NCBI GenBank assembly: GCA_905178155.1
Contig: CAJINV010000002.1
Span: forward strand, 11,348,591 to 11,412,590
Direction: 5' to 3'
DNA: 64,000 nt
Origin: Amoebophrya sp. A120
Lineage: Eukaryota > Protista > Dinoflagellata
The position numbers were made by a program, and so were the translations under genes. Under the pieces are notes generated by a model. That model worked only from the letters and a program-made list of their open reading frames with translations, was not told the origin of the DNA and did no database searches. Positions within the stretch are counted from its first letter, which is position 1; each line of letters begins with the position of its first letter. This document shows positions 2,521 through 60,636 of the stretch, piece by piece.

Positions 2521-5500
2521 CTAGATGTAGCAGGGCTCCACGTACTTGTGGCAACGCTGGTTGCAAAGTGGACACCTGGGAGCGCGCAGCTGGAAGAAAC
2601 AGTCCTTGCAGAGCGAAATGTGGTTGCAGGGGAGCAGCAACACGCTTTTTTTCTGGTCCAGACACGCGCAGCAAAGCGTTTCCAGGGGCGGTCCGGACTC
2701 GGGATGGTAGTTCTGCATGCGCTATCAAATGTAAAAATGTCTGGGTCTGGAAGATTGCGAGATTTGTCATGCATATTTCGGATCACGCAAATGGCGTCTG
2801 ATGTAGGCAAAAGCATCACAGGTTTTGCGCACGCCTCATGATGCGTGTCCCGCATGAGAAACTTCCTACTTGCGTGCCAAGAAATGGACAGCTTTTGGCG
2901 CTCATGCAACACAAGTTTTTGTGTGTTTCAGAGTTTGCATCACAAGTTCCAACCCTCCCAGACCCAGACATTTTTACATTTGATATGCGCTCCACAAGGT
3001 GTTGCAGGTTCCGTACCTGGATGGCGCGCCCGGTATGGATGTGTCAGGTTTGAAATCGTCAGAGTTGAAATAGTTTGTCATGCATAAAATGGATGCCAGT
3101 TGGAGCCCAGTTTTCAAGTGGCGCATGACAAGTTTTGGCGGTGCCTAAATCCAGTTTGTAATGCTGTTTGGGTAAGAAAGACGCGTTTTGTCATGCTACT
3201 TTGGCAGCTCTATTTCTGCCCCTCAACAGGCTTGCAATCTGCCTCCCTTGCCGACTCTGCAAGACAGGCACTTTGTGGGTTGCATTTTATGCATCGCAAA
3301 TTATTTCAACTTTGACGATTTCAATCCTGACGCTTCCATACCCGGACTCCGGCGCGTACTCGATCCAGACGTAGGTGAGCAGAAAGGTAACAAGCACCAC
3401 CAACAAGGCGCGCCCCAGCGTCCATCCGCTCCAGAGTACAGCCCGCAAATTTTCGGCGCTAGGTAAAAGCACGAACGAAGGACGAGAGGCTTTAGAAGCA
3501 TTGGTCTGGAGCTGGTGCACCTGTTTCGATGAGGTCGTCCCTGCGCTCGCTCGGCTCGCTAGATGCGCTGCTGTTGCCGAGGAGGACGGAGACGGCGACC
3601 TCCATGACCACATCAATCCACCGTCAGTGAACACGTCGTCAATGTCGCCTTCCGTTTGCCCCCGCGCAAACACTTCCTCTTCTACGTATAATGCGGAGGG
3701 GAAAAACGTCGTGTGACAATACCCCCGGAGTTTGGTGTCGTGCAGGTGGCGGAAGGTGTCCTGGAGGTAAGACATGCCGCGTGAGGAGATGTAAAAAGGA
3801 AAGTACAGAACAAAGTAGAAAGTGACCAGAATGAGCACCAGGCGTGCAACCAGTTCTGCGGGGGTTGTCTTTTTGGGTAGATGTGGAAGTTCTGGCTCTA
3901 CTACTTCCACCGAAGTAGACCTGCTCGTTCCCCGATGAACTTCCGCCAGCTCGACGACCAGCTCGTCCACTGATGCAGGAGCAAGAACTTCTGCACAAAC
4001 AAGGTCTTCTACTTCCGCAGTTCTTAATACTATCTGACCTTCGTCCCTTGTCGTTGTTTGGCGACCGGTCGGAGTTGGCAATATTACCTCGTAGTTCTCT
4101 GGTGTAGTCCTGGAACAAGTCAATGCTCGCTCGCGCAAAGCTGCGCTGGCTCGCGCGCCGTTCATTTCGTCTGCTCGCGACCTGGCGGCCGTTGTATCCG
4201 TTTCGGTAGTTTCCCGCCCCTGTAACTCGTGGTGGTGGATCGCTGCAGCGCGCAGCTCGTCGTTGGCCAAATCTTTTTCGTCTACTTCCCTTACAGTTAT
4301 TTCATCTCGCTCTGCTTGTAGCCCTTCTGCCACAACAAGAACGTCGGTCGTGCCATTCGTTCTTGTCCCTCTATTCTCGACGACGTCGTCCCGATTCGCG
4401 GCTACGGGCTTGCCTAGCTCCCGAAGCCTCTGCGCAAAATTGTACACTCCGAGGGCGAGCAACGCAACCACTATCCATCGTAGCCAAAACTGCACCACGC
4501 CGCGCAGCGCGACGGATGAAGTGAACGACCTTGATGTCGCGGTCAAGGCAGCTCCTGCGCCCGTGGTGCCACCACCTCCACCAGCCAAAGGGCCGGAAAA
4601 TAAGCCCACCAGAGGGAAACTTTGGTTCTGCAGCTCGAGGCACAGCAAAACAGCAACACAGACAGCACTCCATGTTCCGCTGACGACCAGTGACGGTTCG
4701 CGCAAATACCGAACGTACACCGGATACGCTTTTGTCAGGACACGCGGCGCGCCGTCTTTCCACAGGATGACGAGACTGGGAAAAACCAAATCCCTAAAAA
4801 ACCCGCACAGGAGCAACAGGAGCATCTTTACCACGTCAGCCAGGAATTCCTTACTCCGTTCCGGCAAAAGCTGCGCGCACACACGATCCAACTGTCGCAC
4901 GAATGCGTTATCGCAGAGTAGGTTCGAGAGGAGGCAAAACAGCCTCATCAGGTCAGGCGCATGCGACGGGTCTGCTCCTTGGTCCTCCTCGCGGCGGGGC
5001 GGGGGGCCGCTACGCTTATGATTGTCTGTTTTCTCTTTGTCGTCTGCATTATTGTCGGCACCACCATCATGTTTTTGTTTTTCAACATCTCGTTTTTGCG
5101 CGGGCAAATCTCTATCTTTAAGCGCGTCTACGACGCCGGTGCGGACAAAGGTACGTGACGATGAGGAGCTCGAGGAGGACGAAGACGACCCAGTGTCCTC
5201 GACCAGGATTTGGTCCGTAATGTTGTCTAACATGCCGTTGTAATGATGCCGGTATTCTTCTTGTTCACCTCGGCGTGCGGCCGTACCTCGTCTCCCGCTG
5301 GAGCTGGACTTGATTGTGTTCTGTGCAACTGTCTGGTGCTGGTTGCTCCTTGTATCGGTACTAAGGTAAGTTGTCGGCCGGTCAACAGCTTCGCCACCTT
5401 CATCCGGTGCTGCAGGCGCCTGAAAATCCTGGTGAGGACTCTCGTCCGGTGCCATGTCTGCCATCTTCGCACTTTTCCGTTCTCTCCTCGCGGGAGCACC

Positions 5501-7275: not shown

Positions 7276-10200
7276 TCAGTCGAGCATGTGGTTTTGGAAG
7301 ACGCCTCTCCTCGGTCCGCCTCCCGGCAAAACGATAACGTTTCCCCCGCGCGTCAATTCCAGGAGTTCTGCTACGCCCCGGCGCACGTCGCGCACGTCCT
7401 CGCGGATCCGGATAATGTCGTACTCAATGGTAGAATTATTCTGTCCGCGGCTGTCGAGCGAGTTGCGGCCCGCAAGCGCGAGCGTGTTGCCGCGATTTCT
7501 GCTAGCACTTGGCGACCTATTCGAGGGGTAAAGATCATGGTCGTCGAAGGGGTCGTTCATATCTCCTCCGGAATGTGCATGTTGATGTTGCGACGCGCCG
7601 TGAAGATGATGTTGTTGATTATGCATCCTGCTGGGCGCGGAGTTGCTGACCAGGCCAGGTATGATCTTCTTGTTCACAGTCATCATCAGTTCGGACAGCT
7701 GTTTTCTGGTTTCCTGCAGCTCCCTCTCGATGGTGCCCATATCTGCGGCGGCCGTGCCGCTGCCGCCGTACAGCGGGTTCGGTAAGGATGCGTCTAGCGC
7801 TCCCGCTGCGCCCCCTCCGCCAATGCCGCCAGACGAGGCTATTCGCTTCATTTCTTTTCTCGTGTTCTGCAGCTCCGCGCGCAGGGATTCCAGCAGTTCC
7901 GCGTTGCTGTTACCCTGCTGCTCGTGGAGCACCTGCCGCATCACCTGGGCCATCTGCTCTTCGTCGAGCGAGATGGTCATGTTGCTGCCACCCATCATGT
8001 TGCCCATCAGCGGGGTGCCGGGCGGGATCTGGCTGCCGCCCATCACGGGCACCAGCTGCAGGTCGCCGCTTTCGCTGGTGCCCTGTTTTCGCAACCCAGA
8101 GGTTCTTTGCCCCGACGGGGTCCCCACCGGCGCGCCGAGCGGCAGCGCCGCCGCGGCACTCGCGGCGCCCCCCTTCGCGGGCGGCGCGAAGGACTCCGCA
8201 CCGAGGACGGGGCTGCCGGGCAGCATGGAGGAGGATCGCTTCAGCTTCTTCGCCTCCTCCTTCTCGATGTCCTCCTGGCTTTTCCAGAAAAAGTCGAAAC
8301 TGACCTCCTCGTTCCACACCGGGTTCACGTCGTCGTGCATGGTCTTCGTGCGCTCGTTGATGTGCTCCAGCTTGATGTCGCCCGAGCTGGGCACCTTGGG
8401 CCAGACCGAGACGTTGGCGTGCGGACTGGCGATCATCTCGCCGAGAAACTCGTCCGATTCGTGCGCCGGGTACAAGTACCTCGCCCGGATGATCTTCACC
8501 GTCAAGTTCCCCGGGTGGAAGGTGTGCCCGCCGTGCTTGATGGCGGGGAGCCCGGTCTCCTGCTGGTTGAAGGGGGTCCACTTCAGTTCCACCTCGATGC
8601 TGCCCTGCGCGTTCAGCTGCTTCTCCATGCCCGATTTCACCACCTTCATGATGTTGTTCTGCAGGGGGGCCTCGATTTTCCCGTGAAAGTGATTGATGTC
8701 GAACTCCACGGGGGCGAGCTTCAACTTCTTGCTATCGCGGACGTTCGCCTGGGTCGACCGTCCGCTGGTATCGTAACTCTGCTCCGAACCGTCGCGGTTC
8801 CGGGCCCGCGCCCGCAGACTGCGCAGGCCCTCCTTCTCGGCCTTCTCGATGGCGTCCCAGTTCTTCCCGATCAAGTCAAACTCTAGCAAAACCTCGCCCA
8901 AGAACAGGAACTCCCCCAGCACATTTTCGTCATACACCTCGATCTGGATGCGCCGCAGCAGGGCTTCCGGCTCCTCAAACTGCATCACATTCTCGACCTG
9001 AAGATTCATTATCATTCCCATTCGTTCGAGGGAGGACGTTGTTTCAAAATCGTTCTGATTTTCGTTTTCTCTAAGTGCCGGCGGCGAGTTGAGTTCTAGT
9101 AAACGAAGTCAAAGGGGCCGGGGGTCGAAGATGACAGCGACCCGCCGAACCCGACCATTTTTACGCGACGAGTGAATGCATTACGCCTTCCAGGAGCACA
9201 CCCGGACCCGGAGCCAGCGAAATAACAAAAAAATTTACTGAAAAGGCGACGGGGGGGATCTGTCTGCCTCACACTTTTTCAAAACTTTCAAAAAACTTTC
9301 CGCGATCTGTTTCCCGTCCTAAAATCATTCGCCCAATTTGGGGCGGGGAAAAGACCGCAACAGTCACACGGGCTGCGCGCTGCCAACACATGGCGCAAGA
9401 GGGTAGGAAGGTTGCCACGCTAACCGTCGCGCGCCCTGTGCTATGACAAGGCCCGCCTCCCGGGCGGCGCGGCGCAGGGTCCACCGGCCGCGGGGCCTCT
9501 CCTTTCCTCTCGGTCGTGGACCACATGAGAGGGGTCTCTCGGGTATTGCCAATCCTGCATCGCCCAGACAAAACAATCCCGGCCAAGGAACGAACATCCA
9601 CAGCGGAGCCCGGCGCCGTGATGGCCCCCCCGGGTGCTGCCAAGTGTGCAAAAAAAGAAACCGCGCAACCTCGCTCGGGCAACCCTCTATGGGTCCTGCG
9701 ACAGGTGCCGCACCTCGAAGGGTGGTAGACCCCGCCAAACCCCACACACCCGACGCAATGGCCCCCGAGAGCGCCAACAATTTCCCACAAAAAAAAGCCC
9801 CTGAACTTCGTGCACGCGAAGGTATGGCGCACGCACAGAAAAATGGGTACGCTCCAAGTTGGCCTCTCGCAACCTCGTGCACGCGACGGCACGGCCCTCC
9901 TGAGTGCCAGAAAAAAGACCCCGCCCAACTTCGTGCACGCGGTGCTATGACCCTTCTGGGTGAGGCAGGATTTTGCGAAAAAAAATCCCGCTTCAACTTC
10001 GTGCACGCGAAGGTATGGTCCACGGAACTGCCAAAAAGAGCGCGGCAGCTGGCCCATGGCCGAAATACTTTGAAAATACTTTGGAAAATACTTTGTGAAT
10101 ACTTTGCAAAACTGCCGGCCAACTGGCCGGCTGAGCGGCACCATACCTTCGCGTGCACGAAGTTAAGGGGCAGCCGAAAATGTCCGCTTTCAAAAGTATT

Positions 10201-13200
10201 TTGCGAAAGTATTTCGCCCCGGGAAAAGCTCGGGCCGGCCGGCGATCTGGCCCGAAGGCTGTGGTCGGGGGACCTCAGACGCCCGGTCACCAAAATGGCG
10301 CGCCCGGGATGCGTCATAGCGTCGTGTGCACGAGGAGAAAGGGGCAGAGGGCGCGCCCTCTCCAGCAAAGACCTGCGCCAAGGTCCTTGGCACCGAAGGC
10401 CTGGCCTTGAAGTCGCCCGGACGAGGCGCGCGCCTTTGCGCGCGCTCTTTGGCTGCGTCTGCCCTTTTGCAGCTAGGGCGCTGCTGCCAATCTCAGCGCT
10501 GTGGATTTTGCCTCTTTCCCTCGGGTTTTTGGAAATGGTTCCTGCTGCTCTACAGCAGGTTTTTTGGATACTCACCCGATTGGCGCAGACTAGTTTTTTT
10601 AGGCCATAGAGCCACGGCCGGAAAGTCGCTTGCTACGATCGGCCGCTGGATATGCAAAGTGCGAAAGCGAAAAATCTTTCCAAGTGGTGGAAACCGACGA
10701 CGCAATTTCCCAGCTTGAGGGCGGAGATCATAGTGCGGATTTTGAAATGCAGAAACAGTTTCTAGCCTCAGAATCAGAGTGCGTTTTTTGCAATGCAAGT
10801 CCAGTTCTCCAGCTGAAATCCGAGGTGTGATTTTTGAAATATAGCTGCACTTTTCGGCCGAAATTCGAGGCGTGTATTTTAAAATAAAAGCACAGCGCCC
10901 CGGCTGCAAATCGAGGCGTGTGTTTTGAAATACAGCAGCATTTTGCGGGCGCGATTTCAATATGCGAATTTTCAAAAACGCAAAGTATTTTGAAGGTATT
11001 TTCGAAGTGTTAGACGAACAGAATAGCCCCCCCGTCTTGTCGGTAAAAAAAAATGATAAATTGAAATTCCCTTTTAGCATAATTTTAATTCACTCGAATG
11101 AGTACTAAAAAACAAATATAAGCAATGAATCTTGAAGCCCGTTGGTGCAGCTGGTGGACGTAAAATAAATCTTGGAAAAAAGGCACAAAGAATCCGGTAG
11201 TACCGTTTCTCGCTCGATCTGGTTTTGCTTGCTCTGCACCGCGAGGTCAGCGTGGTGCTCGGTCCAGACGTCTGTGAAGTTGTTCAGCAGCACGGAAGTT
11301 GGCATCGCCACGACGAGAAGCGCCGTGAGCATGGAGATGATGCCGGCCAGCTGGCCCACTAAGCTATAGGGTGCCATGTCTCCGTACCCCACGGTGGTGT
11401 AGGTGACGAAACTCCACCACATGCTGTGCGGGATGGACTTGAAGGGGGTGGCCTCCACGTCGTCTATGACCCAGTTTCTGCGTACCCACGTCTTCTTCAC
11501 GGGGTCCCAGTGCCCCGACTCCGCGAAGTAGATTATCGAGGCGGACACCGTCACGAAGAGGAGCAACACGAACAGCAGCACGGCGAGCGCGAGGAAAGAT
11601 CGGGTAAACACCTTCGCGATCACCGTTATTGTGTTCACATACTTAGCCACCTTCATGAACCGGAACAACCGGGTCAGCCGCACCACACGCAGCACCGTGG
11701 AACCCTGCACGCCACTGCTGCCCACGAAGAGCTCGAGATAGAACGGCACAATCGCCAGCACATCAACGAGATTCATTGGGGTTAGGATAAAGTCGCTTAA
11801 CCTGTTTGTTTGTTGTTCCGTAGAGGATTTGGATATTCCGATAATTCATGCATGTTGGGCACTCGCATTGGGTTTGGGGGGGGCCTGTAGTTAAAGGTAG
11901 AGGCCTGTCGTCAACTGTAACTGAACATCAGCGATATTAGAAGAGGTTCAATTACAATTTTGGACCAGATAAATACAATTCAATACCTTCTCAATCGTCC
12001 GTGCCTTCTTCCGAGACTGTGCTCCCCGAGGCAGAGTTCAACGCAGCAGTTGCGGCCACGGCACCAGCTTGCAGCGACCTTGGGTCGCTGCGAGCACACA
12101 GGGCGGCATTGTCGGCCGACTGCGTTGTGCCGTGCGTCGCAGCTGCGGTGCGCTCGCTAATCCATGCATCGAGGCGGGTGGAGATTAACTCCCAACGCCC
12201 GCTCTCCCAATGCTCCACCGGGCGAGATTCATGCTGGGCCATGGCCAAGGTGCGCGGCATGTTCAGCCAGTGCATGCACTGGAGATNNNNNNNNNNNNNN
12301 NNNNNNNNNNNNNNNNNNNNNNNNNNNNNNNNNNNNNNNNNNNNNNNNNNNNNNNNNNNNNNNNNNNNNNNNNNNNNNNNNNNNNNNNNNNNNNNNNNNN
12401 NNNNNNNNNNNNNNNNNNNNNNNNNNNNNNNNNNNNNNNNNNNNNNNNNNNNNNNNNNNNNNNNNNNNNNNNNNNNNNNNNNNNNNNNNNNNNNNNNNNN
12501 NNNNNNNNNNNNNNNNNNNNNNNNNNNNNNNNNNNNNNNNNNNNNNNNNNNNNNNNNNNNNNNNNNNNNNNNNNNNNNTTCAATACCTTCTCAATCGTCC
12601 GTGCCTTCTTCCGAGACTGTGCTCCCCGAGGCAGAGTTCAACGCAGCAGTTGCGGCCACGGCACCAGCTTGCAGCGACCTTGGGTCGCTGCGAGCACACA
12701 GGGCGGCATTGTCGGCCGACTGCGTTGTGCCGTGCGTCGCAGCTGCGGTGCGCTCGCTAATCCATGCATCGAGGCGGGTGGAGATTAACTCCCAACGCCC
12801 GCTCTCCCAATGCTCCACCGGGCGAGATTCATGCTGGGCCATGGCCAAGGTGCGCGGCATGTTCAGCCAGTGCATGCACTGGAGATCATGCCCGCAAACC
12901 AGGGCCATGCTGCCCGTTCTCTACACCTCTCTATCTTTCCCCGGGGCTGGCTTTCAGATACCCGCCCATGCGAGTATCTAAGAGCCAGTCGCCCCAGGAA
13001 GATATACCCTGAGCTTCTGCTTCGCGCAGCGAGCATGCCCTCTGTGGAGGGGCGCTCGCGTGGAGCAGAAGCGCAAGGCAGCGACGCACTGGGCTCACGC
13101 GGGGCCGGTATCGCAAGGGACCACGCAACACGTTTCCGCGGGGAAACATGCCGCGACGGGGACCTACGGACGCGACGCAGGGCATTTTCTGAGGTACAGA

Positions 13201-15268
13201 GCGTCGCTGGGGACCACGCGGCACGCTTCGGGCGAAGCGTTTCGCGACGGGGACCTACGGAGAGACACGACACGAAGCTCATAGCTTCGCCGTCGCGTCG
13301 GCAGGGACCGTATATACGCTTCGCTTGAAGCATGCCCCAATGGTGGCCCAAGAGGTAGCACCAAGCTCCTGTGGAGAGGGTGCCTGGGTCACACAGCAGG
13401 CTTCGTGGAAGCGTGGCGCGACGGGGGGACCACAGAGCGGACACCAAACCCTTGCAGGGTTGGTGTCGACAGGGACAGGGACCGCGCAGAACGCTTCGTG
13501 AGAAGCGCGCCCCGAGGGGGACCTGCGGAGACCAACACACCACACCGAGCCGTGGTGGAGTTGATGTCGACGGGGACAACGAACACGCTTCGCAAAAGCG
13601 CGTCGCGATGGGGACTTACGGAGACGCGCGACACCAAACCTGTAGCAAGTTTGCAACACGCGTCGGCGGGGACCACGTGGCACGCTTCGCGTGCCAGAGT
13701 ATGGCCGGGAGCGTGGCAGAGTATGGCCGGCGCGTCTTCACTGGAGTGCACCTGCGTGCCAGCACCTCCAGCTTAGACCTCCAAGGCGTGCGCCTCAGCT
13801 CTCGCTGCAGCACCACCCCGGGGTGCGTCGCATACATCTGCCGCCTCGCGCGCCTTCACTGGAGTGCACCTGCTTGCCAGCACCTCCAGGGAAACGACAA
13901 CACGCGCCCGGCGCGCGCCGTTGCCCCTACAGCGGTGTCGCTCCCGTTAGCTGGCAGCGCTTAACCTCATTTCGCTATTGATCGATATGTTGGACGCGAA
14001 ATACCAAATAAATTTCAATACCTTCTCAAACGTCCGTGCCTTCTTCCGAGACTGTGCTCCCCGAGGCAGAGTTTGAGCAAGTAGTCCTCAGACAGCACCT
14101 CCGGTCTGCAGCCGTGGCAGGTGAGCAGCCGCGCAATGTACTCCGCCGAGAAGATAATGACGCACACGACCTCCATCTGGTCAAAGACCGGCAACTGCTT
14201 TGGTATACAGTCGTCGCGGCAGTACTCAAAGGTCGCCAGGGGCCACGCCTGCCGGTGCACGGTGTCTACGTTGCAGGTGGTTTCGCACGCGGTGTTGGGC
14301 CACACCTTGAACTCGGGCAGGGTGGCCACGATGAAGAGGATGGAGGAGAACATGATGGTCGCGAGCAGGAAAAAGGACAGCCACTTGGCGAGCCGGCAGC
14401 TGGAGGGGTCCTCGAACACCATGAAGACCCGCTCCATGGTGGTGAGCTGGATGAAAAAGCTGGAATTTTTCCACACGGCCACGAACTCCCACCACCCCAC
14501 CACGTATCAACGGTAAAAGTGTCTGGATCTGGAAGATTCTGACACTTGTCATGCACGTTTTGCATGGGCCATGATGTCTGTGATGCATACCCTAGCAATA
14601 CAGATTTTTTGAGGGCTTCTTGATGCGTATTCCGCATGCCAAATGCCTTCTCAGCGTAGCAAAAACTGCATTCCCTTTGCTGGTACTCATGCAATCAAGA
14701 ATTTTTTGGAATCCAGATGCAGCATCACAAGTTGCATTCTTCCAGACCCAGACATTTTTACATTTGATACCGCGCCGCTGCCGTCCACGTCGTAGTGCTC
14801 GGAGCGGAACACCGTGTCCTCGTCCCCGATCACTTTCAGCACCCGCCGCATGGCCCGCTCGAAGTGCTGGATGTGGATCTCGTCGGCGTTGGACGGGTGG
14901 ATACTAAACCGGTCGGACAGGGTCTGGAACAGCTTCCGGAACAGTCCGAGCCCCAGTTCTAACTTCGCGGGGGGAAGCATGCTCTGGTTCTCGCCGTCCA
15001 TGTTTAGAAAGTCGAACCGGGACAAATCCACCGGGGGCAACGCCCGTATCGGCGCCTCGTCGTCCGTCATCTTTTTCAGGAACGAGTCCCCCGACTGGGA
15101 CACCGAGCGGAGCTTCCCTTGCTCCATCACCGGGTCCACCTGCTTCTTGTTCGTATTGTAGTTTGTAGAATTGGACCCAGGGGTCTCCGTGCGCGGTGTT
15201 GGGTCCTCCATCCCCGGTCCGCCGCCCGGACTGATCTGGTCCTTGTTGCCGCCGAAAAAACTACTCAT
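7276..15268 (-). CDS. Voltage-gated potassium channel with N-terminal EF-hand and C-terminal C2 domains (multi-exon)
   Basis: EF-hand DVDGSGAV|GWWEF is rebuilt across an introner. S4 is LRVVRLTRLFRFMK and the pore is TTVGYGD. Canonical GT-AG introns 14021-11802 and 11203-9055 join in frame to C2-like segments (RRIQIEVYDEN...FLGEV; LTVKIIRARYL...VNPVWNEEVSF). The link to the C2 exon is inferred. Confidence 0.8.
9234..11047. mobile_element. Putative non-autonomous TIR DNA element (~1.8 kb) inside a canonical intron
   Basis: Imperfect ~70-bp TIRs (tttactgaaaaggcgacgggggggatctgtctg... / ...cagaatagcccccccgtcttgtcggtaaa). Internal repeats of cttcgtgcacgcgaaggtatgg in both orientations. Degenerate ~45-bp tandem repeats at ~10810-10960. 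No recognisable protein. Confidence 0.6.
12287..12578. other. Assembly gap (N run)
   Basis: 292 Ns; flanks 11979-12286 and 12579-12886 are identical. Confidence 0.99.
12639..13995. repeat. GC-rich intronic insert with degenerate internal repeats (probable mobile-element remnant)
   Basis: Recurrent cgcgacggggacc...cgcttcg units and a duplicated cttcactggagtgcacctg...ccagcacctcca. Flanked by a 60-bp copy of the host exon end. Confidence 0.5.
14505..14769. mobile_element. Introner family A (265 bp)
   Basis: TIR tatcaacggtaaaagtgtctggatctggaag / cttccagacccagacatttttacatttgata. DR ccacg / ccgcg (1 mismatch). Removal rebuilds the EF-hand. Confidence 0.93.
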
Positions 15269-15279
15269 GATATTCCGCT

Positions 15280-48333: not shown

Positions 48334-50922
48334 TTAGCGCTGGAGGGAATGCATAATAGAAGTACCAAATCCGGTGTGCGCGGAACTCTGCCCGGTTTGC
48401 AGCTGCGCCAGCATCTTCTTCATGATCATCTTGTTTGCGATAGGGAGAAACTTCACGGGCATCTTGCTCTTTTTTGGGGGAAACACCCACAGGACGGCCT
48501 TGTCGTCTTCTCTGGTGGCTTCCCATTGGCCCTTATTGACCCACATGTACCTGAGTTCAGTGGTGGTCACGAGTTTACTTCGTTCGAAGATGACACAGCA
48601 AGCCTCCAGCAGCACAGCCTTCGTCTCATTTCTCGTACAAGTGATTAACTGAGCAAAGAAAGGGACTCTTAGCTTGTTACCCTTTTCGTCGGAGTACTAG
48701 CGCAATCATCTGTATGAAAATCCACAACTTGCACTACCACTACGTGTGCGTCGTCGTCGTTACTCGCTAGTAGATTATTTACTAGTTTTCGATGCATACA
48801 AACATGGCGGCACACGGAATAAACTTACTTAAGAAAGAATAAACAAGTAATCGAAAAGTTCTTTATCTGTACGATCGGTCCAGCTTATGCTCTCCCCTGT
48901 CGTCCGGTTGTAAGAGGCCAAAGAAGCTCTTGGCCAACTTCTGTTCGCCCCAGAAGACCGAGGGATTTTCTTCCTCAAGCTCCTTGATGTCGACGTCCTC
49001 GTCGAAGGTGACTTGCCGGAAATCCTGGACCCAATTCGTCTCGTGGGGGACGATGGGATACTCGGCTTTCACCTGAATGCTGGGGTCCGTGGGGTGCACG
49101 GCGGGCCTCTTCACGGCGGCGAACGTGCTCTTGATGCGCTCCAAGAGCTCCTCCGGCGTCGTTTCCTCCACCGGCTTACGTGGCAAGTTCTTCTCCGCGG
49201 CTGTCGTGTGATCATGAACAACGAAAATGTGGTCGTGACAAAACATATACTTCTATCTTGCACAAAGAGAAGAGAAGTAAATCTCCACTCGGCGCTATTT
49301 GACAAGACAAAACTATCAATCTACAACACCGTCCATTTCACGGTGCAGCGTAAGTGGTCTCACTGCTTCAAAACCTCGCACCGGCACAAAAACGATTGAG
49401 CATCTACAAACATAGAGCTCTATTCTTTTTCTGATATCCTATTTTCAGGCATCAACCAGAGAAACGACTTGTCACGCATAAAGGCTTCGACTCAGGCATA
49501 TGAATGTCAATCAATGTCGACTGAAAAAAATGCAAGAGAAAAGCATATCCAAAAGACATCCAAAATTCTTCTGCATATTATAAATATTTGACTATAATTT
49601 TGTAGTTTGTAGTTTCTAATACACAAAAAATTATGCTATAGCAGCGCATTACCTTCGTGGCCGACGATGATATCGTCACCCTTGGAGAATATGTCGTTCT
49701 GGACGAGGATTGGTCGCCGCAAGAACAGGGCCTCGGTTTCTTGCTGCTTGTTTACCAGGCGCTGCTGTTGCTGCTGCTTGGTGTATCGCTTGCTGTGCCC
49801 CAGCGGGTGACTCGCGGGCAACGGATTCATGTCCCAATGCCATTTCCGCTGCGAGAAGGCGCCAATTTTGCTCGCCTCAAACAACAAACTCGTAGAAAAC
49901 GGGTCCACTTTTGTCACTGTTTAATTGATTCATTCGATGTTCTTTCCAGTTTCGACGATGTTGTAGGAAGTGGTTCTTCAATAAAATTTGTTTCGACAAC
50001 CATGATGCAGTATCTCTATCTTCACATATTAGATGAAGGCTGAATGTATGGTGCGTGGCCCATTGGTCGGCTAGAAACAATTTCAGTACGATGGTTTTCC
50101 TTCAAACTCAGCTCGTTGACGGTGCTGCTTGCTGTGCGTGCCAGGAGGTACTCCATTTTGGACCTGCAAACCGGCGTCGCGAGGATGTGATTGCTGTATT
50201 GCAGCGCGCAAAACATGGGCTCTGCCTGTGGACAATCCAAGTTCTCAGCGTGCTTGAATGTATGAAACCTCGCTTTGAAATGCTCCTTATTTATGTTTTC
50301 GGCGGCCTTGCGCTGCCGTTTCGCCCGAGGCTGGCCATCCGGAGGCTGGTCGTCATCGCCCTCGGCGGCTGCACCCGGAGGGGCTGCCGTGCCTCTGCGG
50401 GCTGCCGCGGCCGGTGCTCCATCGTCGCTGCGGTCGACGTCTGAATTGTGAAAGCTCGGACCGTAACCGCTTCCGCCGCCAGGGGAGTGTGCTGTGTAGT
50501 AGTAGGGGATAGTTATAGTATATAGTGTTCGAGTTTGTGCTTGGTGTATCAATGTAGGTAACACCAGAAGCGCTGACCGCCTGCAGTTGCAGGTGCACTT
50601 CTTTGTCGGATCTTCAAGTTCAACCACGCAACTCGTTGTTTTGTTGTTCCATTACTTTATTTTGATTCGATATTTCTTCCATGATGGTGTCGATGATGTT
50701 GGCAGTCGTGTGCCCTTTACTTAGCGGACTGCTGCGTGCTTGAAAAAATAACGAACAATATCGCAGCCAGTTTAAAAAGAATTCGAATACAACTACACAT
50801 ACACAACTCAAAACAATAACAAAAACAAGTATACATGACATTGAGTCGCCTCCGCCGAAATCAGAAACCTTGTGAGAGTCGCCCCTGCCCATGGAGTCGA
50901 CCTGCTGCAAGAGGTCACCCAT
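48334..50922 (-). CDS. PAF1: RNA polymerase II-associated factor Paf1-like protein, multi-exon (ends uncertain)
   Basis: Segments FCALQYSNHILATPVCRSKM, FLRRPILVQNDIF and LLERIKSTFAAVKRPAVHPTDPSIQVKAEYPIVP resemble conserved Paf1 blocks in the expected order (recognised by eye). Confidence 0.65.
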
Positions 50923-53399
50923 TTTGCCGACACAGAATGGTCGTCTCCCCTGCGGTTCCGGCTCCGGGTCGTGTACTTATCGATGTGCAGAGACTGATCG
51001 CTGAAGCTGATGCCAATCTTTTCGCTTGGCCAGTGCCTCGCTTCCGTCTTCTCCTGGTTCTTGCCACCCTGCTGAAACGAAAAATTGTCCTTGTCGAAGA
51101 AGTGCCTATAGACGATCGATATCGTGCTGCGCCGCGAGCCAAAAGAGCAGCGCGAAGATGATCTACTACTTGTTCGAGAGCGACTGGGGTCTATTTCGTA
51201 CTACTCGTGCAGCTACCTTGGTCGTGTCTCTGCGTTTTTCTCTTTCGGCACGACAGATCGGGACGCGGAGATCGTCGCACAGCGAGAAGGAGGACGGTGC
51301 CGTCAGTCGTTCTGGAAGTAGTAGTGCCTCTACTGCTACTACTATACTTCTCGCTACTTCTCGTCGATTTCAGGAGAGACGGGCATCTTTTACTTTTGGG
51401 GAAATAAGTGTAGGATCCATCGCTATTATTCGGGCCTATGGTGGAGTCGTCTGGAGCGTCTGTAGCACTATGATGTTGAAGGCTGTCGCGATTAAAACTT
51501 CTTGTAGTTGAGGTCGGTGTTCCCACACCAATTATGGTCTTCGGTGCTGCCACCCGTGGTCGATTCTAAAGAAAAGCGACGGCCGAGGTAGAGAACGTTC
51601 TAACAGGACGGGGTCGCGCAGAGCAAGAACTGAAACGGCGGCTGAGCTCCTGGGTCGGTTGAGAACCTCCAGCAGTAGGCAAACTACAGGTCGTCAAATG
51701 TCGAAGCAATTCCGGCCCTTACTTTTGACGGCTGATCACCTGGACCACGTGATCAATCGTGGTCGTTACGCTCCTGTGGGCAAAAGAACTAAATTCTACT
51801 TGGGTCGGAGGTCGAAGCGGCTCACGTCGAAATCACTGAAGGATGTAGGTTCACCAGAAGATGAAGACAGACATTTTCTTTACGTTCCGATCGTGTAAGT
51901 AAAACAAAAAATGTTACGGGCGATCATAGGAAAAAAAAGCTACGGGCTTAGTGAGGCATCCAACGAGTCATGATAAGGCACTCTTCAACATGGTCACACT
52001 GAAGACCTTGCACATACATACTACGCAGGTCCACTTCGCTCAAAATGTTCTCCTCTGGCTGGAAATTAAATGGTCAGGTTGAGAAAATGGAAAGGCGAAA
52101 CCGCGACAACTGTACGAAAAAAGTCGCGACGCGCACTCATTTTATCGGCAACGAACCGATGTTGTGTAGTTTTTGATTTCGTTCTTACGGTCAACATGCA
52201 GATGCAATTATTGTTATTCATGTTCTTCTTCATATATTACTGCATCAACTTTAAATTTACTATATCAATTTCAATCTCGTGTTCCGGAGCATTACCTAGT
52301 ACTAGTTTGTTCTTGACCGCCACTACTTTTAAGTACCCCCTCCGCGTTTCCCCTTAATGTGATGGCATACATATCCAATAATCGAACCACAGGCCGTGGG
52401 AATTAATAGAAGAGCACGGGCAAGACCTCAACGAAGAAGGTAAGAGCTGAAGACTTCTTCACTAAATAACCAGCTGCATTTCGTCCGGAAGATCGGCCAG
52501 TCAAAAAAACACACACTACACAATTGAGCATCAATGATGGAAGGGGCTTCGATTTTCGATTTCGAGCGAAATGGCAAAATACGAACGTTCTTTTTTGAGA
52601 AAAACAATTTGAGAGCCGCGAATCAATGGCAGATTTCATCTACGAGCTGGTGGCCTGCGATAAACATAGGCCATAGGAACGGGAACCTCAAATTTTTCCG
52701 AACTACTAACTAGAGCTTCAAGGGACCATAAAGCTGCTAAAACAAGAAAGCTGTGGCTCGCGGAGCTCAGTCAATCATGCGTTTGTTAGTCCCGGTCCGC
52801 CGCGTTTTTTCCATGGTATCTATTCTATTCGAGAGAGGTATGCACCAGTTGAGCATTTTGCTTACATGGTCGAGACACTGGAATGTAAGAACGAGGCTGA
52901 GCCAGATCCTTTAATCTTGAATGCATTGCATTTTGATTTACATTTCCTTTTCCATTGGCCAGAGAGCGTGTGTGTGATCATCTTCATGGAGTTTTCCTCC
53001 CGTTGAAGGTACTTGCGAGCAGTCTCAGAGTAGACACTCATGAAGATCGAGATCCTTCAATACTTGTTTTCGTTTATACTCTGTCCCGCATCAAAATGTC
53101 ACAACGCTTATGCATGCAACTGCTCCCAACCGAGGACGCCACCAATGAATCGTGTAGAATTTCCTTCAATTTGAAGCTGGGCTGAGGTAGCGAATCTACA
53201 ATTGAAGTGCAGTTCTAGGTGGTTCTCTGTAGTACGCAGCTCCGTTTAAAAGTACGGGCCTGGCACAGCGTCTTGTGGAACATCAAACACACTGAACAAC
53301 GTTGTGACTCGGCGGTCCAATACACGGACCCCACTAATTTTGTTTTCATCTTCATGCAGCTATGGAAATGATTTTTGAACTTCGCTCGTCAATTGCGAT

Positions 53400-55121
53400 T
53401 ACGTATTCGTAATATACTGCATATAGTATAATTTTTTGATGTGCTGCCTGCTGAGGGTCATGCTCAGATCCGACTTCCTTGTTGATAAGCTGAAGATGCT
53501 CAGATGATCTCGATCATCTGCTTCCGTTTTTACAACACGGACGGTGAATTTAAGTCATTGTCGTTCGTTCGAGCTGCACAACTACAGGAGCGGCATATCC
53601 TTGTAGTTGTCGCCGGCTAATGTTGCTGCTGCCCCTCCTTTTTGATTTTACTCTGATCCAACGATAATAGGACCTTGCTCATCTTCCATGCAGCTTCATG
53701 TCACAGCCGCGCCGTCTCCTCGCCATGATGCTCACCTTGCTTTCGACAAACCCGCCCGGCTTTAGCTTTTCAACATGTCGCCCTCAAATTCATAAAACAA
53801 CTTTTTTCTTTATGTTTTCGCTATCGTTTCGAAACTGTGGTAGAAAAAAAAGAAATAGAATAGGAATACCAGTCGGTATTCTCATTAATAATGTGCGTGT
53901 GCAAAACAGGAGAAAAACTTGTATAGCAAACTGCAATGTAAATGATGTAAAACAAAAGAAAAAATCATCTCGATTTTTTTTGTCGCCCCATTCTGTCCAT
54001 GTTGAACATGGACACCGATACAACTCATGGTCATGCCCTCGACGAAGACCATCATTAACAGTCCTCACCCGTCAGAACGAATCTGAATGATTGATGAAAG
54101 CTGTCCAACTAGAGATGAAATAGAATTCAACAAGATAAATTGTCGTGGAAATGAATGATGAAATGGAAATCCTTATGGACAAAAAATGACACGTGTCCAC
54201 CTCCACACTTCTATCGCCTCCGTAGTTCTTCTTGCACAACGTATCGACTAACGACCTGATGCAGACAACGCGCCATGATAGATGAACTGTGAAAAGAAAG
54301 ATACTACAGGAGGAAGTGGCAAATCTCGGCGCAGCTTCGTTTTTATTTGCGCAGATGTTGTGGCTCTGTGTCTGAGCTGCCCGAAGAGATTCCACTCTCC
54401 CCTCCTTGCTTTGAGCTACTACTTCTGGGAATCGTAAGGTACTAGCGTGCAATTTCCGGCAAAAATTGCTCCCAAATTGCGTAGTCGTACTTACACTTTC
54501 TCCGTTGTATCTCCGTTGTAAAAGTGAATGAGACAGCGACGCAAATTGATGCTTCACAGACACCTCAAGTGGAGCATCGACGTGAGGCGGGGGTAGATTG
54601 ATCACCCCCTCCGCCGTGACGAGATGTGGGTACAACAAGACTCACGCGGCGCTGTCCGTCGTCTCCCCGTGGTCCACTTCCTCCTCCTCGTCCTTCTCCA
54701 CGCGCGGCCCCGCAGCAGGCCGCGGCTTTCCCAGCTGCAGGAGCGGCAGCGGCTTCTTCGCCGGGAAAGGGTCGGCGAAGATCGTCCCAGAGGGCGAGAA
54801 GGAGCGCTGTTCTTCGGGAGCACCTGCTCCCGCCGCCCCATCTTCATCATGATGCCCACTTGCACTTCCGCCGTCGCCAAGAAGACCTTCAGCTGGATCA
54901 TCGCGCCGCGAAGATGAGAGCAGCAAGGGACTCTTCTTAGTGGCCGCGCTCCTCTGCTCCGACAACGATAAAAAAGCGGAACGTCTTGTAGTTCTTCCAG
55001 TCGCGCTGCTTCTTCCTGAGGAGCGCCTCGTCCCCGCCGAAAGCCCGCTGGCAACGGTGAACCCCGAACCAGCAGCCGAACTCGGCGTTACACTCGCGCC
55101 ATTTCTATCAAATGCAAACAT
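53400..55121 (-). CDS. Hypothetical protein (first exon 54600-55121 plausible; downstream exons unresolved)
   Basis: GC-rich ATG-initiated ORF 54642..55121 followed by intron-like AT-rich sequence. Confidence 0.35.
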
Positions 55122-55358
55122 CGTGCTCCTTGGTCTTCAGAAAGAATGCAGAAAGTGCGTCCTCGTTGCTGCAGCTGCGACCTCTTAAAAAGTGTCGTCG
55201 CACCTCGCGCGACCGGATGACGAGAAGAACAGTGGTGCTGCTGCAATCTTTCTTGAGAATACATATACAACAACTGTCGTTCTATAAAACAAATGGAGGC
55301 AACAGTGCAGTGAAATCATTTGTTTGTACGACAAGAACTCCTACAGACCAGGGAAGCA

Positions 55359-58300
55359 TCACGAAGATGCATAAGGAGCAGAAGAATACTCTGAATAATC
55401 ATCAGAGTCATCATAATAATCCTCAGCAGGATCATCTAAGGCGGCGGATGAAGCGCGGCTTCCCGTTCTGGAACTGCGTCTTGAAACGCGGCTTCCAGCG
55501 CGGCTTCCAGGTGACCTGGAAGCCGGAAGTCGTGTTCCAACTGGCGGTTGTGCCGGACGCGGCAGCAGCCCAGGAGATCGCGTTCCGCTGCTCCCCACCC
55601 TGCTCCTGGCCCCGCCCGCACTGCTCATGGCCCTGCCCGCTACACTGCTCCTTGCAACTCCTGCCCGCCCCCTCGGCTGTTGCGTGCTCCCGGGCAGAAC
55701 GGCTGCCGTTTGCTGGGGCCCGCCACCCCCCACAAGCTTTCGCCGGTGTTCCGTAATTTGCGACAGTACCTTCTGCCGCCCGCATTCCCGCTTGTAGTTC
55801 AAGAAGCTGAGCGCCTCTGTGTGGCTGAGCACCGCGTTTTCGTACGGTGGAGCCTCCACCGCCAGTGGCTCGCGTTTTTGAATTGGGTTCTCTGGCACAG
55901 ACAAGAGGTGAACGTCCGCGTTTTGGTACTGGTGAAGAAGGTAACGCGTGATCACCCCGGCCAACACCAAGTCTCCCACGTACGCCTGCGTTTGCTCCTT
56001 CAGTTCGTCCATTTTTTGGTCTTGTTGCACTTGGTTCAGAGCACGATCCTGGATGATGATGTCCCGAAGCCATTTTAGGTTCGAAAACTGATACGGACGG
56101 TTTGGATCATCGTCGTGCGGGTCCTGCCTCAGGTACAGAGCATCCAGGTTCCAAATGGTGACGCTCCCGTCGAATCGCTTCGCTTTTTGTTCGGTCTTCT
56201 TTTGTGTTGCCGACGTTTTGTTCTTCCCGGCAGATGTGAGCTCGTCGAGAAATCGCTTATATTGCGTCTCCACATCCTTTCGCACCACATCAGCCAACAT
56301 TTCCTGGGCCTCCGAGTATTGTCCGCTCCGCAGAAACTGCACGAAGTCGCTCCACGCCGCACCATCGCCCTGCCAATGCTCGACGCTGGAGATTTCCACG
56401 CGGAAAACCAGGCAAGAGTTGGCGGAGCCCTTCGAGCCCGTGATTTCCTGGCACTTTTTCTCCTGCGTTTTGGTGTTGAGTGGCAGTTGCATCTGCCTTA
56501 TGGAAGCGTCAGGTTTGAAATCGTCAAAGTTGAAATAATTTGTAATGCATAAAATGCATGACCGGAGGCACGTGTGTTGCAGAGCAGGCAAGTGAGGCCG
56601 ATTGTAAGCCTGTTTGGGGCTACAGCTCGAGCTGCTAAAGTAACATGAGAAAATCGCTCTTCTTTGCCTAAACAGCATGACAGAGTGGATTTAGGGACCA
56701 CCGAAATTTGTCTTGCGCTACTTGGAAACTGGGTTCCAATTGGCATCCATTTTATGCATGACAAATTATTTCAACTTTATCGATTTCAACTCTGACACAT
56801 CCATATGCCTCGGGTCTTCCGTCTCGGTGTCTTTTTTGCGGATCCGCCCGACGGGGACGAGCAGTCCGTCGCCCAGGTCCGTAATGTAGGTCGCGGGATA
56901 TTCTCCATCGACTTGATCGAAGAACACACGCTCCATGGTGGTCTTTGCCGCGTTGCAGGCGTCGTCCAACACCAGCATCTGGGCCTGCGTCATCCGCACG
57001 TGCAGCTGGTCCTTCGTACCAAGCCCGTTCCGGATCGGCGTCGTCGTGTGGGACTTCAAATATTCATCCAACACCTCGTCCCGCTTCTTCGAGAACTTGT
57101 AATACTCTATTCTCGCTTGGTTGCCGTGGAGCACGTACAGCGGCGAATTTGGGTCGTCGTCGGTGGAAAACCGGGCGTATTCTCTGCAAAAGTCCATCGT
57201 ATCAAGGTTTCCAATTGCAACTGCAGTACCTAGATGTAGATCTAGATGTAGAGACGACAAATAACTCATTTGCCGAAGAAGACATATACACTGTTGCTAC
57301 TGCTACTCAGGAGCAGAGCTAGTAGTAAAGGAAAACAAGGCTCAAGCAAATGATCAATTGCTAACATGCAGTTTGTTTTGGCAACCTGAAGACGATAGCT
57401 TTCAACTGCATAAAGCTTCCCAATCTGCGGCGTCGTGCGCAACTCCTGACGCCGCCCAGGAAGAAGCATAGAGACGAAGGAGAGCGGCTTTGCGCGACGC
57501 CTGCTGGTAGGTGAGCAATATGGCGCTCTCAAATGTTACATTCTCAACTGTTACATGATTTGTCATGCAAAAACACTGTCACTCTTAATACGATCAAGCC
57601 TTCTCCGCATGACAACTTCTCGACGTGCTAGATAGCATTATAATCTGCTCCAAACCTGTAATGCAAAAGGCGCAACGTTTTTCCTTTCACTTTTGTCGTT
57701 CTTGCATTACAAATTTCATGTAACAGTTGAGAATGTAACGTTTGAGAACGCCATAAGCAACGCTTTCAGTTTATCGAAAGAAAAAAACCTTACCTCCAAT
57801 ATGCGTATTCAGCGAAGGCGCGTGAAAATGGAGGAGGTCAGGGCCTTAGCTTGTAGAAAGCAGAGGAAGAAGGGCAGAGAAAAAGAAGCCAAGTTGTCGT
57901 CGGACGCCTACTTCTGCCTTTTATACGTGATCAAAAGAAAAACTAGAGGACCGTGACTCTTCCTAAAGCCATGAAAAGAAGTAAAACTTTGAGAACCAAC
58001 CGCGGCGATGACACATGCGCATTTTCCTTGTTCTCACAGCAGATCTACTCTACGTGCATACTTCTATTTCTGAATTGGAGCTGGAGGGAGGCAAACAAGA
58101 AGCGCAGATTGATGAAGGCAGAAATCAATCGACCAAGTCCAAAGGACCTCTACTGTGGCTTATGCGGGGCGTTCCATCAAGAGCCGGCCCGACATCAATC
58201 AACCTGCAGCAGGGCTAGGGCTTCAGCTGGGCTGGCTCTCATCCCTTGCAAGAAAGCACGGACCTACGAATGTGTCCATGCGCCACAGCGATCTTTCGCC

Positions 58301-60636
58301 CGAAACCGGGGAAAAGTAAGAGCAGAGATTGAGATGGATGTTGATGAAAAAACGAGAAACAAAAAGATGAAAAATGGTTGGTCCCAATGATCTCACCACT
58401 TCTAGCACATCAACTAGCGGCATTTTTTCGCTAGGAGGCAAGTAGGCAGCGGGTTTTTTTCTAATCATATCATTGGATGTCCCGCATCTGCTCAAACACC
58501 CCGCCGAGCGAGTCGGCCTTGATTTCGTAAGCCGACTTTGGCTTTGCCTTGGGTGCAGCTGGGGCGTCAATTCTTGTCTGATCAAGGGCCTTGGACAAGC
58601 TGGCACGCATCCATTGTTCGGGGCGCTTGTACGTGCTGATGTCTCCGGCTTGGTAGCAGGGCTGCAGACTTGCCTTCACGTGGGACCTCGCCACTGACTC
58701 CGTCATGCCGTACCGCTGCTCGATGTACCCAGTGAGCACGTCACCAAGGGCAGCAAGGGACACGTCGTTGCTGGCAGAGTTTGGGTATGGGTTCACATCC
58801 ACGTCGATCAGCAAAATTCTCTTTGGAAAATCAAGCATGTCCTTGTTCTCACCCGTGGTTTTCTCGAGCATTTTTTTCGCGATGCCGAGCGGACTGCTGT
58901 CGCCGTTTTGAACCTTTTGTTTTCGCGTCACGTCCAGGAGACCTCGGCGTTCCGGCGCCGCCTTCGTCGGAGCCGGCCTGGCTTGGAGGACCCACCCGCG
59001 TCTGCCTGGGCCGCGAGGACAAGTTATCCAAAAGCTCTGCGGGTTTTGTTCCCAGTTCCCGCCATCGCACACAAAGGTCTGCGCAGTTTCCTGGTCCAAC
59101 ATGTAAAGGTCCAACATGTAAGTATTTTGGGATTGGGGATGTTTTGTTCGATCAAGCCAGACAATCTGTCCCGTTTTTTCCATCTTTGTCCAGTCAGAGT
59201 TCAACTTGTCTCCCACCTTTCTCGTGTCTTGAACCATCCGACTCAAATCCTCGCTGAGGGAGGTATGGCGTTCTCAACTGTTACATTCTCAACTGTTACA
59301 TGAATTTGTCATGCAGAACTACCATCAAGATCTACACGAGAAAGCTGCTTCGCGTGACAAATTTGCGAAAGGCTAAGCAAAGCCTAAATCTGTGCAGAAC
59401 TTGTATGTAATGCTAGAGGTGCAAGAACCTCGCCCCTTTCACTTTTGCAATTCTTGCATCACAGACTCATGTAACAGTTGAGAATGTAACAGTTGAGAAC
59501 GCCATAGGAGGTGTCGAAGATCACGTTCACGACGGGCGCCGAGTCTTCGCCGAGGGGGGGCTTCGCCGCAAAACAGCCCGACCGAGAGAGCTTGTCTGCG
59601 AACAAATCGCGGTCAGCCTGGGAAGCGTTCTCGTCAGGCACACTAAGCTTCAACTTCTGGTACCCAACACCCCACCGATCAATCTCCCCGCGGACGTTCA
59701 TCCCGGAGTCGCGAACCGACGAGTCCACAAAGTTCACGCAGATTTCGGGCACAATCGAAACGGCAGCAAATGAAGGCCCGCCTTCGACCCCTCCCGGCAC
59801 TGGATTGCTGCACTGCTGGTTGGTACTCAGCGCCACTGCTGCCATCTGGGAGCGGACCCCGCCGAAGGCTGCCTCCTCCTGCTTGCGAACCTGCTCCTGC
59901 TTTTTCTGCGCGGCCTCGTGTGCCAGCAAAGCTTTCCGTGCAAAGTAGCTGGATCCGATGAAACCTCCCAAATTGGGGGTTCCGTAAATTCCCCAATTCG
60001 CACCCACCAGGGCCGCACCAACGACCGGAAGCGTCCATAAGACCGCACCTGCAGGTGAGATCTGCTGCAGCTGCTTCTCCTGCACCTGCTGCTTCTCCTG
60101 CACCTGCTGCTTCTCCTGTACCTGCTGCTTCTCCTGTACCTGCTGCTTCTCCTGCACCTGCTGCTTCTCCTGCACCTGCTGCTTTTCCTGCACCTGCTGC
60201 TTCTCCTGCACCTGCTGCTTTTCCTCGAGCCTTTCCCGCAGAAGCTCTGTAAAACAAAAAGAATGGATCTTGCCACACTTGAACTTCTTGACCATCAAAC
60301 CTATAAAAATCATGGGAAAATGAGAAACCAAAGAGAAATGACGTGAAGATCAACATGATCATGATGTAGATGTTCGCGTCGTGGGAACAACAACAACATC
60401 AACAAACTACACGAATATAATAGCTGCGTGGTACTCGTTCGCTTCTTCTGAAATTCCAGCTTCACTCCCGATCCGGTGTAGAAAACCGCAGCAAGCCAGT
60501 ACATCACCAGGCGTGGCAAGTGAAGGCCCGGTCGGGCCCCTGCACGGACAACTACTACGGGCGACGAAGATGCTGCAGCGCTTGACGAGGCCGCCGCAGT
60601 CGCGGAGAACCCTGCTCGGGCACAACCTTGCACCAT
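55359..60636 (-). CDS. Large multi-exon hypothetical protein with 3 introners and a QEKQQV repeat (could be more than one gene)
   Basis: ORFs 59459..60331 and 58470..59246 join in frame after introner removal (FDTS|LSEDLSRMVQD), as do 56766..57269 and 55359..56678 (EDPR|QMQLPLNTK). No family recognised. Confidence 0.65.
56499..56805. mobile_element. Introner family B (307 bp)
   Basis: Family B TIRs; DR tgcct at 56494-56498 and 56806-56810. Confidence 0.95.
57519..57755. mobile_element. Introner family D (237 bp)
   Basis: Family D TIRs; DR agcaa. Host exon frame is plausible (KLKAL|LTYQQASRKA) but not independently anchored. Confidence 0.92.
59264..59506. mobile_element. Introner family D (243 bp)
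   Basis: Family D TIRs; DR ggagg at 59259-59263 and 59507-59511. Confidence 0.95.
60071..60224. repeat. Coding 18-bp tandem repeat (QEKQQV)n
   Basis: About 9 copies of ctgctgcttctcctgcac. Confidence 0.9.

Follow-up and report, generated by a model that had tools for sequence, protein, structure and literature searches.

Introner elements of Amoebophrya sp. A120 lie in both orientations, with cuts probably placed at a set distance from each inverted end

Introduction

The window analysed here is a stretch of 64,000 nucleotides (nt) from the dinoflagellate Amoebophrya sp. A120 (GenBank assembly GCA_905178155.1, contig CAJINV010000002.1, positions 11,348,591 to 11,412,590 of the forward strand), which holds 17 introner elements (IEs) with inverted ends and flanking 5-nt direct repeats (DRs). 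Such elements lie without bias in either orientation relative to the gene strand, six of them are exactly absent from an RNA-type contig, and all are likely cut at one position, 1 nt before the first TAT of the element and 4 nt after its last ATA. This position, read from mismatched DRs and the proteins that they encode, fits a measurement from the element ends better than a pairing of the two DRs.

The elements are assigned to the IEs described by Farhat et al. 2021 (PMC7789003) because a gene of the window matches an A120 protein at 100%: the open reading frame (ORF) at 35236-36777 aligns at 100% identity with a segment of an Amoebophrya sp. A120 protein of 2344 aa, and the whole protein maps to 46564-35239. 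Every tested feature of the A120 IEs was found, namely the species, an RNA-supported non-GT-AG intron, terminal inverted repeats (TIRs), DRs, an end made of TAT, seven variable bases and an A-run, and an organization in families. As far as that publication describes them, the A120 IEs share with the window elements the non-GT-AG boundaries, the TAT inverted ends, the A-run at positions 11-13, DRs of 3-5 nt, the families, the lack of a transposase, the co-oriented genes and a proposed hairpin, and no difference in kind emerges against its description.

According to the same publication, more than 60% of the introns in A120 are non-canonical, with RNA-seq support genome-wide, and a hairpin was proposed that could bring the exon ends together, the intron border being marked as unknown in the legend to its Fig. 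3. Nearly all spliceosome proteins and the U2, U4, U5 and U6 small nuclear RNAs (snRNAs) are described there for A120, the U1 snRNA not being reported, and the nine commonest non-canonical end pairs in its Table S4 include nine of nine with T at +2 and eight of nine with A at -2. In strain A25, all of the most frequent non-canonical ends in that table start with TT. Another Amoebophrya is described as having mainly GT-AG introns and a U1 snRNA (bioRxiv 10.1101/2024.09.05.611473), and an A120 TIR family with homology to long terminal repeat elements has been reported (PMC12130899). Both the class and the idea of a hairpin have thus been published, and the orientation neutrality and the cut position are the additions of the present analysis. 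In the literature searched, including the text and supplement of Farhat et al. (figures S19-S25 and Roy et al. 2023, Curr Biol, lie outside that coverage, and either may hold these points), neither the orientation of the elements nor a constant cut position was found to be discussed for A120. The rule suggested here would be new, and it is testable.

Anatomy of the elements

The 17 elements, found by self-comparison and a direct scan, are 193-963 nt long and run from an initial TAT to a final ATA; their ends pair, and a 5-nt DR stands on either side. They comprise all 14 elements of a preliminary description made from the sequence alone (starting at 2723, 3034, 14505, 15280, 19238, 19549, 36779, 38998, 40798, 41130, 42083, 56499, 57519 and 59264) and three added ones (42510-42826, 45552-45744 and 62962-63319). 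The DRs are perfect in 13 of the 17, with one mismatch at 14505 and 42510 and two at 41130 and 42083; among the 14 repeats listed earlier, 11 are perfect, and for 14505, 41130 and 42083 that list had given the upstream copy alone. In all 17 elements, 15 to 25 of the first 25 terminal positions are paired, in keeping with the TIR of 8-20 nt or more that marks the A120 IEs. The main scan demanded TAT ends; a scan of the window free of that requirement returned 17 rows, and all nine scoring at least 12 start with TAT. When the element and one repeat are taken out, long minus-strand frames open at most sites in the window, the coding context being uncertain at 15280 and 57519 (posterior 0.38 and 0.23).

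A larger sample consists of the window and at least 132 loci (52 of them shorter than 900 nt), which were found by one family-A end motif, come from the same strain or one very close to it (an A120 protein matches one locus at 98%) and are designated L with a number. In 609,921 bases of shuffled sequence, 4 elements turned up, whereas the real window and loci together yielded 250. The sample contains 12 families of 2-137 copies each, with the terminal composition TAT(C/G)...(C/G)ATA; positions 11-13 are A in 87-95% of 175 elements, and the full A-run is missing in families B and C.

Removal from RNA

The host gene of seven elements, on the minus strand at 35239-46564, encodes a cyclin-domain protein (P0005, 2344 aa) and also contains seven ordinary GT-AG introns. 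RNA was compared over 35100-55000, a region to which the family B elements at 3034 and 56499 and the family C element at 19238 are external. Run X1 is RNA by guess, as it appears without the ordinary GT-AG introns, like complementary DNA, and the gene model may share its data; the raw-read runs X9 and X11 contributed 10 and 2 reads on the compared region. Contig 1 of X1 aligns to 35100-44787 in pieces, and six elements are exactly absent from it, among them a reversed family A copy together with two forward ones. When each element plus 5 nt and the GT-AG introns are subtracted, the first gap leaves 1611 - 968 - 141 - 300 = 202 letters, the second 532 - 274 - 197 = 61 and the third 2035 - (267+312+342+322) - 303 = 489, each equal to the number observed, with four elements tested as one sum in the third. 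The boundaries of the ordinary introns at 37747-38384 were settled by the gene model. A single L+2 cut yielding GT...AG from both DR ends was ruled out by the RNA lengths.

Removal is thus exact at six sites. Six of the 17 elements are missing from the X1 contig, a seventh (45552) is removed according to the gene model only, and 10 lie outside the coverage; the A120 gene model removes all seven host-gene elements exactly. Of the 181 insertions in the window and loci that are coding with confidence, 180 would disrupt the frame if the element stayed in, one of them in the largest subunit of RNA polymerase II. Elimination at the DNA level, of the kind known for internal eliminated sequences, was not seen over 41407-55000, where contigs of run X5 cross the elements with no differences.

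Orientation and splice signals

Families A, B, C and D all occur in both orientations in the window. The family A element at 36779 runs opposite to the other four A copies and the family B element at 3034 opposite to 41130 and 56499, as had been described; the family C element at 19238 is likewise opposite to 57519 and 59264, and 19549 is opposite to 45552 (family D). The host genes lie on one strand, every Pfam match in the window and 29 of the 30 ORFs given being on the minus strand. In the larger sample, the strand was assigned for 216 of 252 elements by a model trained on the window, which agreed with all 16 loci anchored by Pfam matches (13 independent ones among them), and 36 elements with a weak strand score were dropped; the coding model misplaced L027:1261, which is nested in an older element, so that some coding calls are wrong. 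Family A shows a ratio of 48:62 between the two orientations (p=0.22, 95% interval 0.34-0.53), and eight families pooled give p=0.32. The elements are therefore neutral with respect to orientation.

On the minus strand, no placement of the junction within the DR yields GT-AG in any of the 17 window elements, and GC-AG arises in one (56499), in agreement with the preliminary description. Its wider statement that the boundaries cannot be GT-AG does not survive as a rule, as 9 of 175 perfect-DR elements allow GT-AG where 11.2 +/- 2.9 are expected, and an outcome of 0/17 has a probability of 0.41. With 9 GT-AG and 5 GC-AG solutions among the 175 at any position, canonical U2 donors and acceptors stand at the level of chance. 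The absence of a strand-specific signal, also claimed earlier, is borne out: five branch-like motifs and the pyrimidine content are equal on both strands, and no 5-mer survives about 511 tests. The letters of the DRs in the larger sample show no donor or acceptor preference and match the background of their codon positions. Neither of the first two results named beforehand as refuting the preliminary description, a strong orientation bias and a strand-specific branch motif, appeared in this sample. Given no orientation bias, no sense-strand motif and neutral DR letters, only the symmetric ends are left to carry the signal.

Position of the cut

Where the two DR copies differ, the message reveals how many bases of the upstream copy stay in the exon (k); about 45 mismatched elements were examined and six gave usable evidence. 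At 42510, k is at least 4, the RNA piece of X1 starting at 42827 with no differences and Arg being present in the gene model and in two of two orthologues. At 42083, k is at most 4, with Leu in the model and in two of two orthologues, and at 41130 it is at least 4, with Ser in the gene model only; the cut positions of these two elements are read from proteins. The element L027:1259-1834 requires k of at least 4 (Lys in 58 of 66 homologues) and L027:972-1199 requires k of at least 1 (Phe in 65 of 66 homologues). The value k=4 alone fits all five sites, with a probability of 0.026 under a uniform cut and of 0.077 when 41130 is left out. Searches of solved structures with L057, L059 and L012 returned matches that stop short of the junctions. 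Polarising the DR mismatches by a GC-to-AT bias was tried and abandoned, as the substitution spectrum of the elements is symmetric and the empty sites of L061 and L075 gave one case each way.

With k=4, the intron would consist of one free base, TAT...ATA and four free bases, and its start, N-U-A-U, would read as an ordinary donor minus its first G. In the host gene, six of the seven ordinary introns carry A at +3, and among predicted ordinary donors (n=81) AT is the commonest +3/+4 pair, with 17 instances against a background of 3.6%. The earlier proposal that recognition relies on a symmetric stem bringing the two DRs together, rather than on directional donor, branch and acceptor signals, is therefore retained in part. 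The signal does lie in the symmetric ends and no branch or pyrimidine motif is enriched on the sense strand, but a need to align or match the DRs is not supported, as 41130 and 42083, with two mismatches each, are absent from the RNA contig and the imperfect DRs point to a single asymmetric cut, not a floating one. The dismissal of a donor may be wrong, as the terminal TAT fills +2 to +4 at k=4.

The inverted-end stem

The stems are strong, with a median duplex energy of -29.8 kcal/mol, and the element at 42083 folds end to end (z = -4.0). Covariation between the left and right TIRs, which had been proposed as a check of the stem, exceeds permutation in three of five families and is lacking in the other two, and in family A it falls mostly on positions 10 and 14; relatedness, subfamily structure and the seed motif can each yield such a signal. 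The need for an RNA stem in splicing is plausible.

Comparison with other intron systems

Duplication on insertion, as in miniature inverted-repeat transposable elements (MITEs), is evident in the paralogues L004 and L005, each of which shows the other's site empty with one DR copy; the site at L005:1125 is not empty in L004. In the paralogues L061:959-1212 and L075:937-1209, related elements lie 10 nt apart, and each site is empty in the other gene. Other duplication lengths comprise one 8-nt and two 2-nt cases, from which no rule of differences in multiples of 3 is drawn. The MITE-derived introners of Micromonas pusilla and Aureococcus, as presented in PMC11282704 and PMC9860276, are likewise non-autonomous TIR elements with a target-site duplication, removal at the RNA level and a restored exon; their splice sites are canonical, the element supplying one and the duplication the other, whereas the DR letters in A120 are free.

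The non-conventional introns of Euglena, in the account of PMC12501133, share non-GT-AG ends at fixed spacers from a paired terminal motif, with the 3' spacer longer. They differ in having a CAG/CTG motif, spacers of 3 and 5-6 nt and a purine after the junction, where A120 has TAT/ATA, probable spacers of 1 and 4 nt and no such preference; the Euglena signature N3-CDG ... CH'G-N5-6 followed by a purine is not seen in the A120 elements, whose ends are TAT(C/G)...(C/G)ATA and whose flanking exon base is unbiased. In Fritillaria borealis, transposon termini also supply the splice sites of TIR-derived introns, whose removal is reported to proceed by an adapted major spliceosome; the end dinucleotides there are mostly AG-AC/AG-AT, whereas +1, -1 and -2 appear free in A120 (PMC11282704, bioRxiv 10.1101/2025.08.15.670264).

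Proposed mechanism and alternative explanations

In the account that is preferred here, a transposase would insert the element and duplicate five bases, and the splicing machinery would measure from the element ends, 1 base before TAT and 4 after ATA, removing the element plus 5 nt. As 1 + 4 equals the five duplicated bases, the exon would be restored whatever the DR letters, and as the same sequence stands at both ends, the same signal is offered in either orientation. The likeliest machine would be a relaxed major spliceosome, which may read the donor-like end and measure off the folded-back ends instead of relying on G(+1), branch-region signals and AG. The whole account, an end-measuring excision (1 before, 4 after) by a relaxed major spliceosome, is given roughly even chances. 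Its more specific form, a ruler-type mode of a U1-less spliceosome with the terminal UAU as donor +2 to +4 and an acceptor 4 bases past the paired end, needing neither G nor AG, is more tentative and is regarded as somewhat doubtful.

Several observations weigh against this account. The cut position depends on five sites, three of them within one gene, with 42083 alone setting the upper bound, and the gene model and run X1, itself RNA by guess, possibly represent the same data. The element at L057:1937 leans weakly to k=5, since its closest homologue carries Glu there and a cut at k=4 would encode Asp, though residues at this position vary (R, E, N, Q, Q). The A at -2 in eight of the nine classes of Table S4 (PMC7789003) is not clearly predicted by k=4, aligners setting ambiguous junctions arbitrarily. 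The set of predicted donors comes from our own model, the non-coding state of which may favour A/T. The elements show no preference for G at +1, for AG at -2/-1 or for any +1/-1 pair, of which a spliceosomal route might leave one. As to the stem, end mismatches on the sense strand comprise 142 G-U and 144 A-C, which is no excess of the kind expected under selection for RNA pairing; duplex and whole-element fold energies are equal on sense and antisense, and TIR position 4 is paired in 134 of 216 elements and position 7 in 110 of 216.

The last of these observations bear on another possibility, that proteins read a terminal sequence motif at both ends and the stem is a by-product of the symmetry of transposon DNA. 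It would account for the lack of a G-U over A-C excess and of a folding advantage on the sense strand, and for covariation that in family A may reflect subfamily structure and in two of five families is missing; but the test for pairing selection is weak because long, strong stems leave little selection on single pairs, and the 3' end reads as a reverse complement, so that two different RNA motifs would be needed. This explanation is considered quite unlikely. The fixed geometry of the preferred account would also arise if the stem were read by a non-spliceosomal nuclease and a ligase, as suspected for the Euglena non-conventional introns. The elements lack signals of the G(+1), AG, branch and pyrimidine type, the U1 snRNA was not found in A120 as far as PMC7789003 reports, the Euglena introns have fixed spacers of 3 nt before and 5 nt after the paired motif (PMC12501133), and the end-to-end fold of 42083 would suit such a machine; the terminal TAT nevertheless coincides with +2 to +4 of an ordinary donor, the canonical introns in the same transcript need a spliceosome despite the missing U1, and tunicate TIR-derived non-canonical introns are reportedly removed by the spliceosome (PMC11282704). 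A separate machine is thus judged unlikely, if less so than recognition by a motif alone.

In the version put forward in the preliminary description, the stem aligns the two DRs, whose identity guides a joining that may fall at any point of the repeat. Of 252 elements, 237 are flanked by a 5-nt DR that has one mismatch or none (a figure that stems partly from the detection rule), there is no orientation bias, and perfect DRs cannot reveal a cut site. Guidance by the DRs is nonetheless quite unlikely, as 41130 and 42083 are missing from the RNA contig despite their two mismatches, the informative sites, five in number, converge on a single position (p = 0.03-0.08), single mismatches spread across all five DR positions (6, 3, 6, 5 and 7), the single DR copy at the empty sites of paralogues shows that insertion alone explains the DR, and two direct repeats cannot base-pair together. 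It is barely credible, finally, that removal is not cellular splicing at all and reflects reverse-transcriptase template switching across the hairpin between the DRs, or excision from the DNA itself. Template switching is known to act on hairpins that lie between direct repeats, and the RNA evidence consists of one assembled contig; but 180 of the 181 coding insertions would break the frame if kept, that in the RNA polymerase II subunit included, all six elements are absent from one contig, the X5 contigs keep the elements unchanged, and introns of this kind have RNA-seq support across the genome in the published account (PMC7789003).

Individual elements and neighbouring features

In the left part of the window, the family A element at 2723-2985 (263 nt, perfect 5-nt DR), the removal of which opens a long minus-strand frame, is followed by the reversed family B element at 3034-3340 (307 nt, perfect DR). 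The family A element at 14505-14769 (265 nt) has its DR mismatch at position 3, and an element of another family lies at 15280-15561 (282 nt, perfect DR). The reversed family C element at 19238-19472 (235 nt, 40-nt perfect inverted ends) lies within an ion-channel/EF-hand reading frame, next to an element with family D ends at 19549-19976 (428 nt, perfect DR).

In the host gene, the cyclin-domain protein has long unique parts, and an A25 orthologue aligns in blocks of 29-73% identity. The six elements absent from the RNA-type contig are the reversed family A element at 36779-37741 (963 nt, including an insert of about 670 nt), the family A elements at 38998-39266 (269 nt, perfect DR) and 40798-41059 (262 nt, perfect DR), the family B element at 41130-41436 (307 nt, its DR mismatched at positions 3 and 4), where the gene model retains the upstream copy through position 4, the C-like element at 42083-42419 (337 nt, mismatches at positions 2 and 5), where the conserved residue requires the downstream copy at 5, and the added element at 42510-42826 (317 nt, mismatch at position 4), where the upstream copy is retained in the RNA-type contig, the gene model and two orthologues. 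The added element with family D ends at 45552-45744 (193 nt, perfect DR) is the seventh of the host gene, removed exactly in the gene model. Farther right lie the family B element at 56499-56805 (307 nt, perfect DR), the sole GC-AG solution of which is not at the proposed cut position, the family C elements at 57519-57755 (237 nt, perfect DR) and 59264-59506 (243 nt, 40-nt perfect inverted ends, perfect DR), and the added element at 62962-63319 (358 nt, perfect DR).

The insert in the element at 36779, on the plus strand at 37012-37685 (limits approximate), is retroposon-like, with a poly(A) end and a flanking duplication of about 15 nt, and its DNA depth of 3154 against about 44 suggests tens of copies. 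A second poly(A)-ended insert of about 670 nt occurs at L029:1730-2420 (approximate), at the same internal motif of another family A copy; the two inserts are far more alike than their host copies, and each duplication of about 15 nt matches its own host. The insert is likely a retroposon that targets introners independently. A sub-terminal motif at 3076-3083, 19283-19290, 37001-37010, 41173-41180 and 42542-42549 (approximate) recurs across several families, often as inverted pairs, and is the target of the retroposon-like insert; it is possibly a transposase-binding site.

Among 181 coding insertions, the phases are skewed at 92:46:43 (p = 4e-6), the common class being phase 0 at the proposed cut. 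At 147 insertion sites, C is enriched directly downstream of the repeat (57, with 36 expected), and so is G at the second base upstream of it (62, with 46), a pattern that is not clearly symmetric. The family A element L027:1261-1529 is nested in the 3' end of the older element L027:1259-1834, where it splits the last bases and the repeat; with a fixed cut position, the inner element must go first, as in a twintron. Two elements, L027:124-268 and L030:2074-2313, lie within ordinary GT-AG introns near the acceptor, not in exons. Elsewhere in the window there are GC-rich tandem arrays with units of 32, 25, 29 and 21 nt (24100-27550), a 308-nt exact duplication at 11979-12886 flanking an N gap at 12287-12578, which is probably an assembly artefact, and inverted repeats or near-perfect hairpins lacking TAT ends and 5-nt repeats at 9789-10333, 17952-18109, 18707-18755 and 28500-28550.

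Significance

The neutrality of orientation places every signal in the symmetric ends and narrows the question of how these introns are spliced, and mismatched DRs offer a route to the true cut position from existing RNA-seq. Cutting at fixed distances from the inverted ends would make the splicing route testable; if the 1 + 4 rule holds genome-wide, it would provide an annotation rule for genes of this kind and a clear way to tell a relaxed spliceosome from a separate machine, as well as a simple rule by which a transposon becomes harmless upon insertion. Should the ruler-type mode be true, any element with such ends and a 5-base duplication would instantly be a perfect intron, in either orientation and wherever it landed; the invasion of exons by tens of thousands of elements would then be accounted for.

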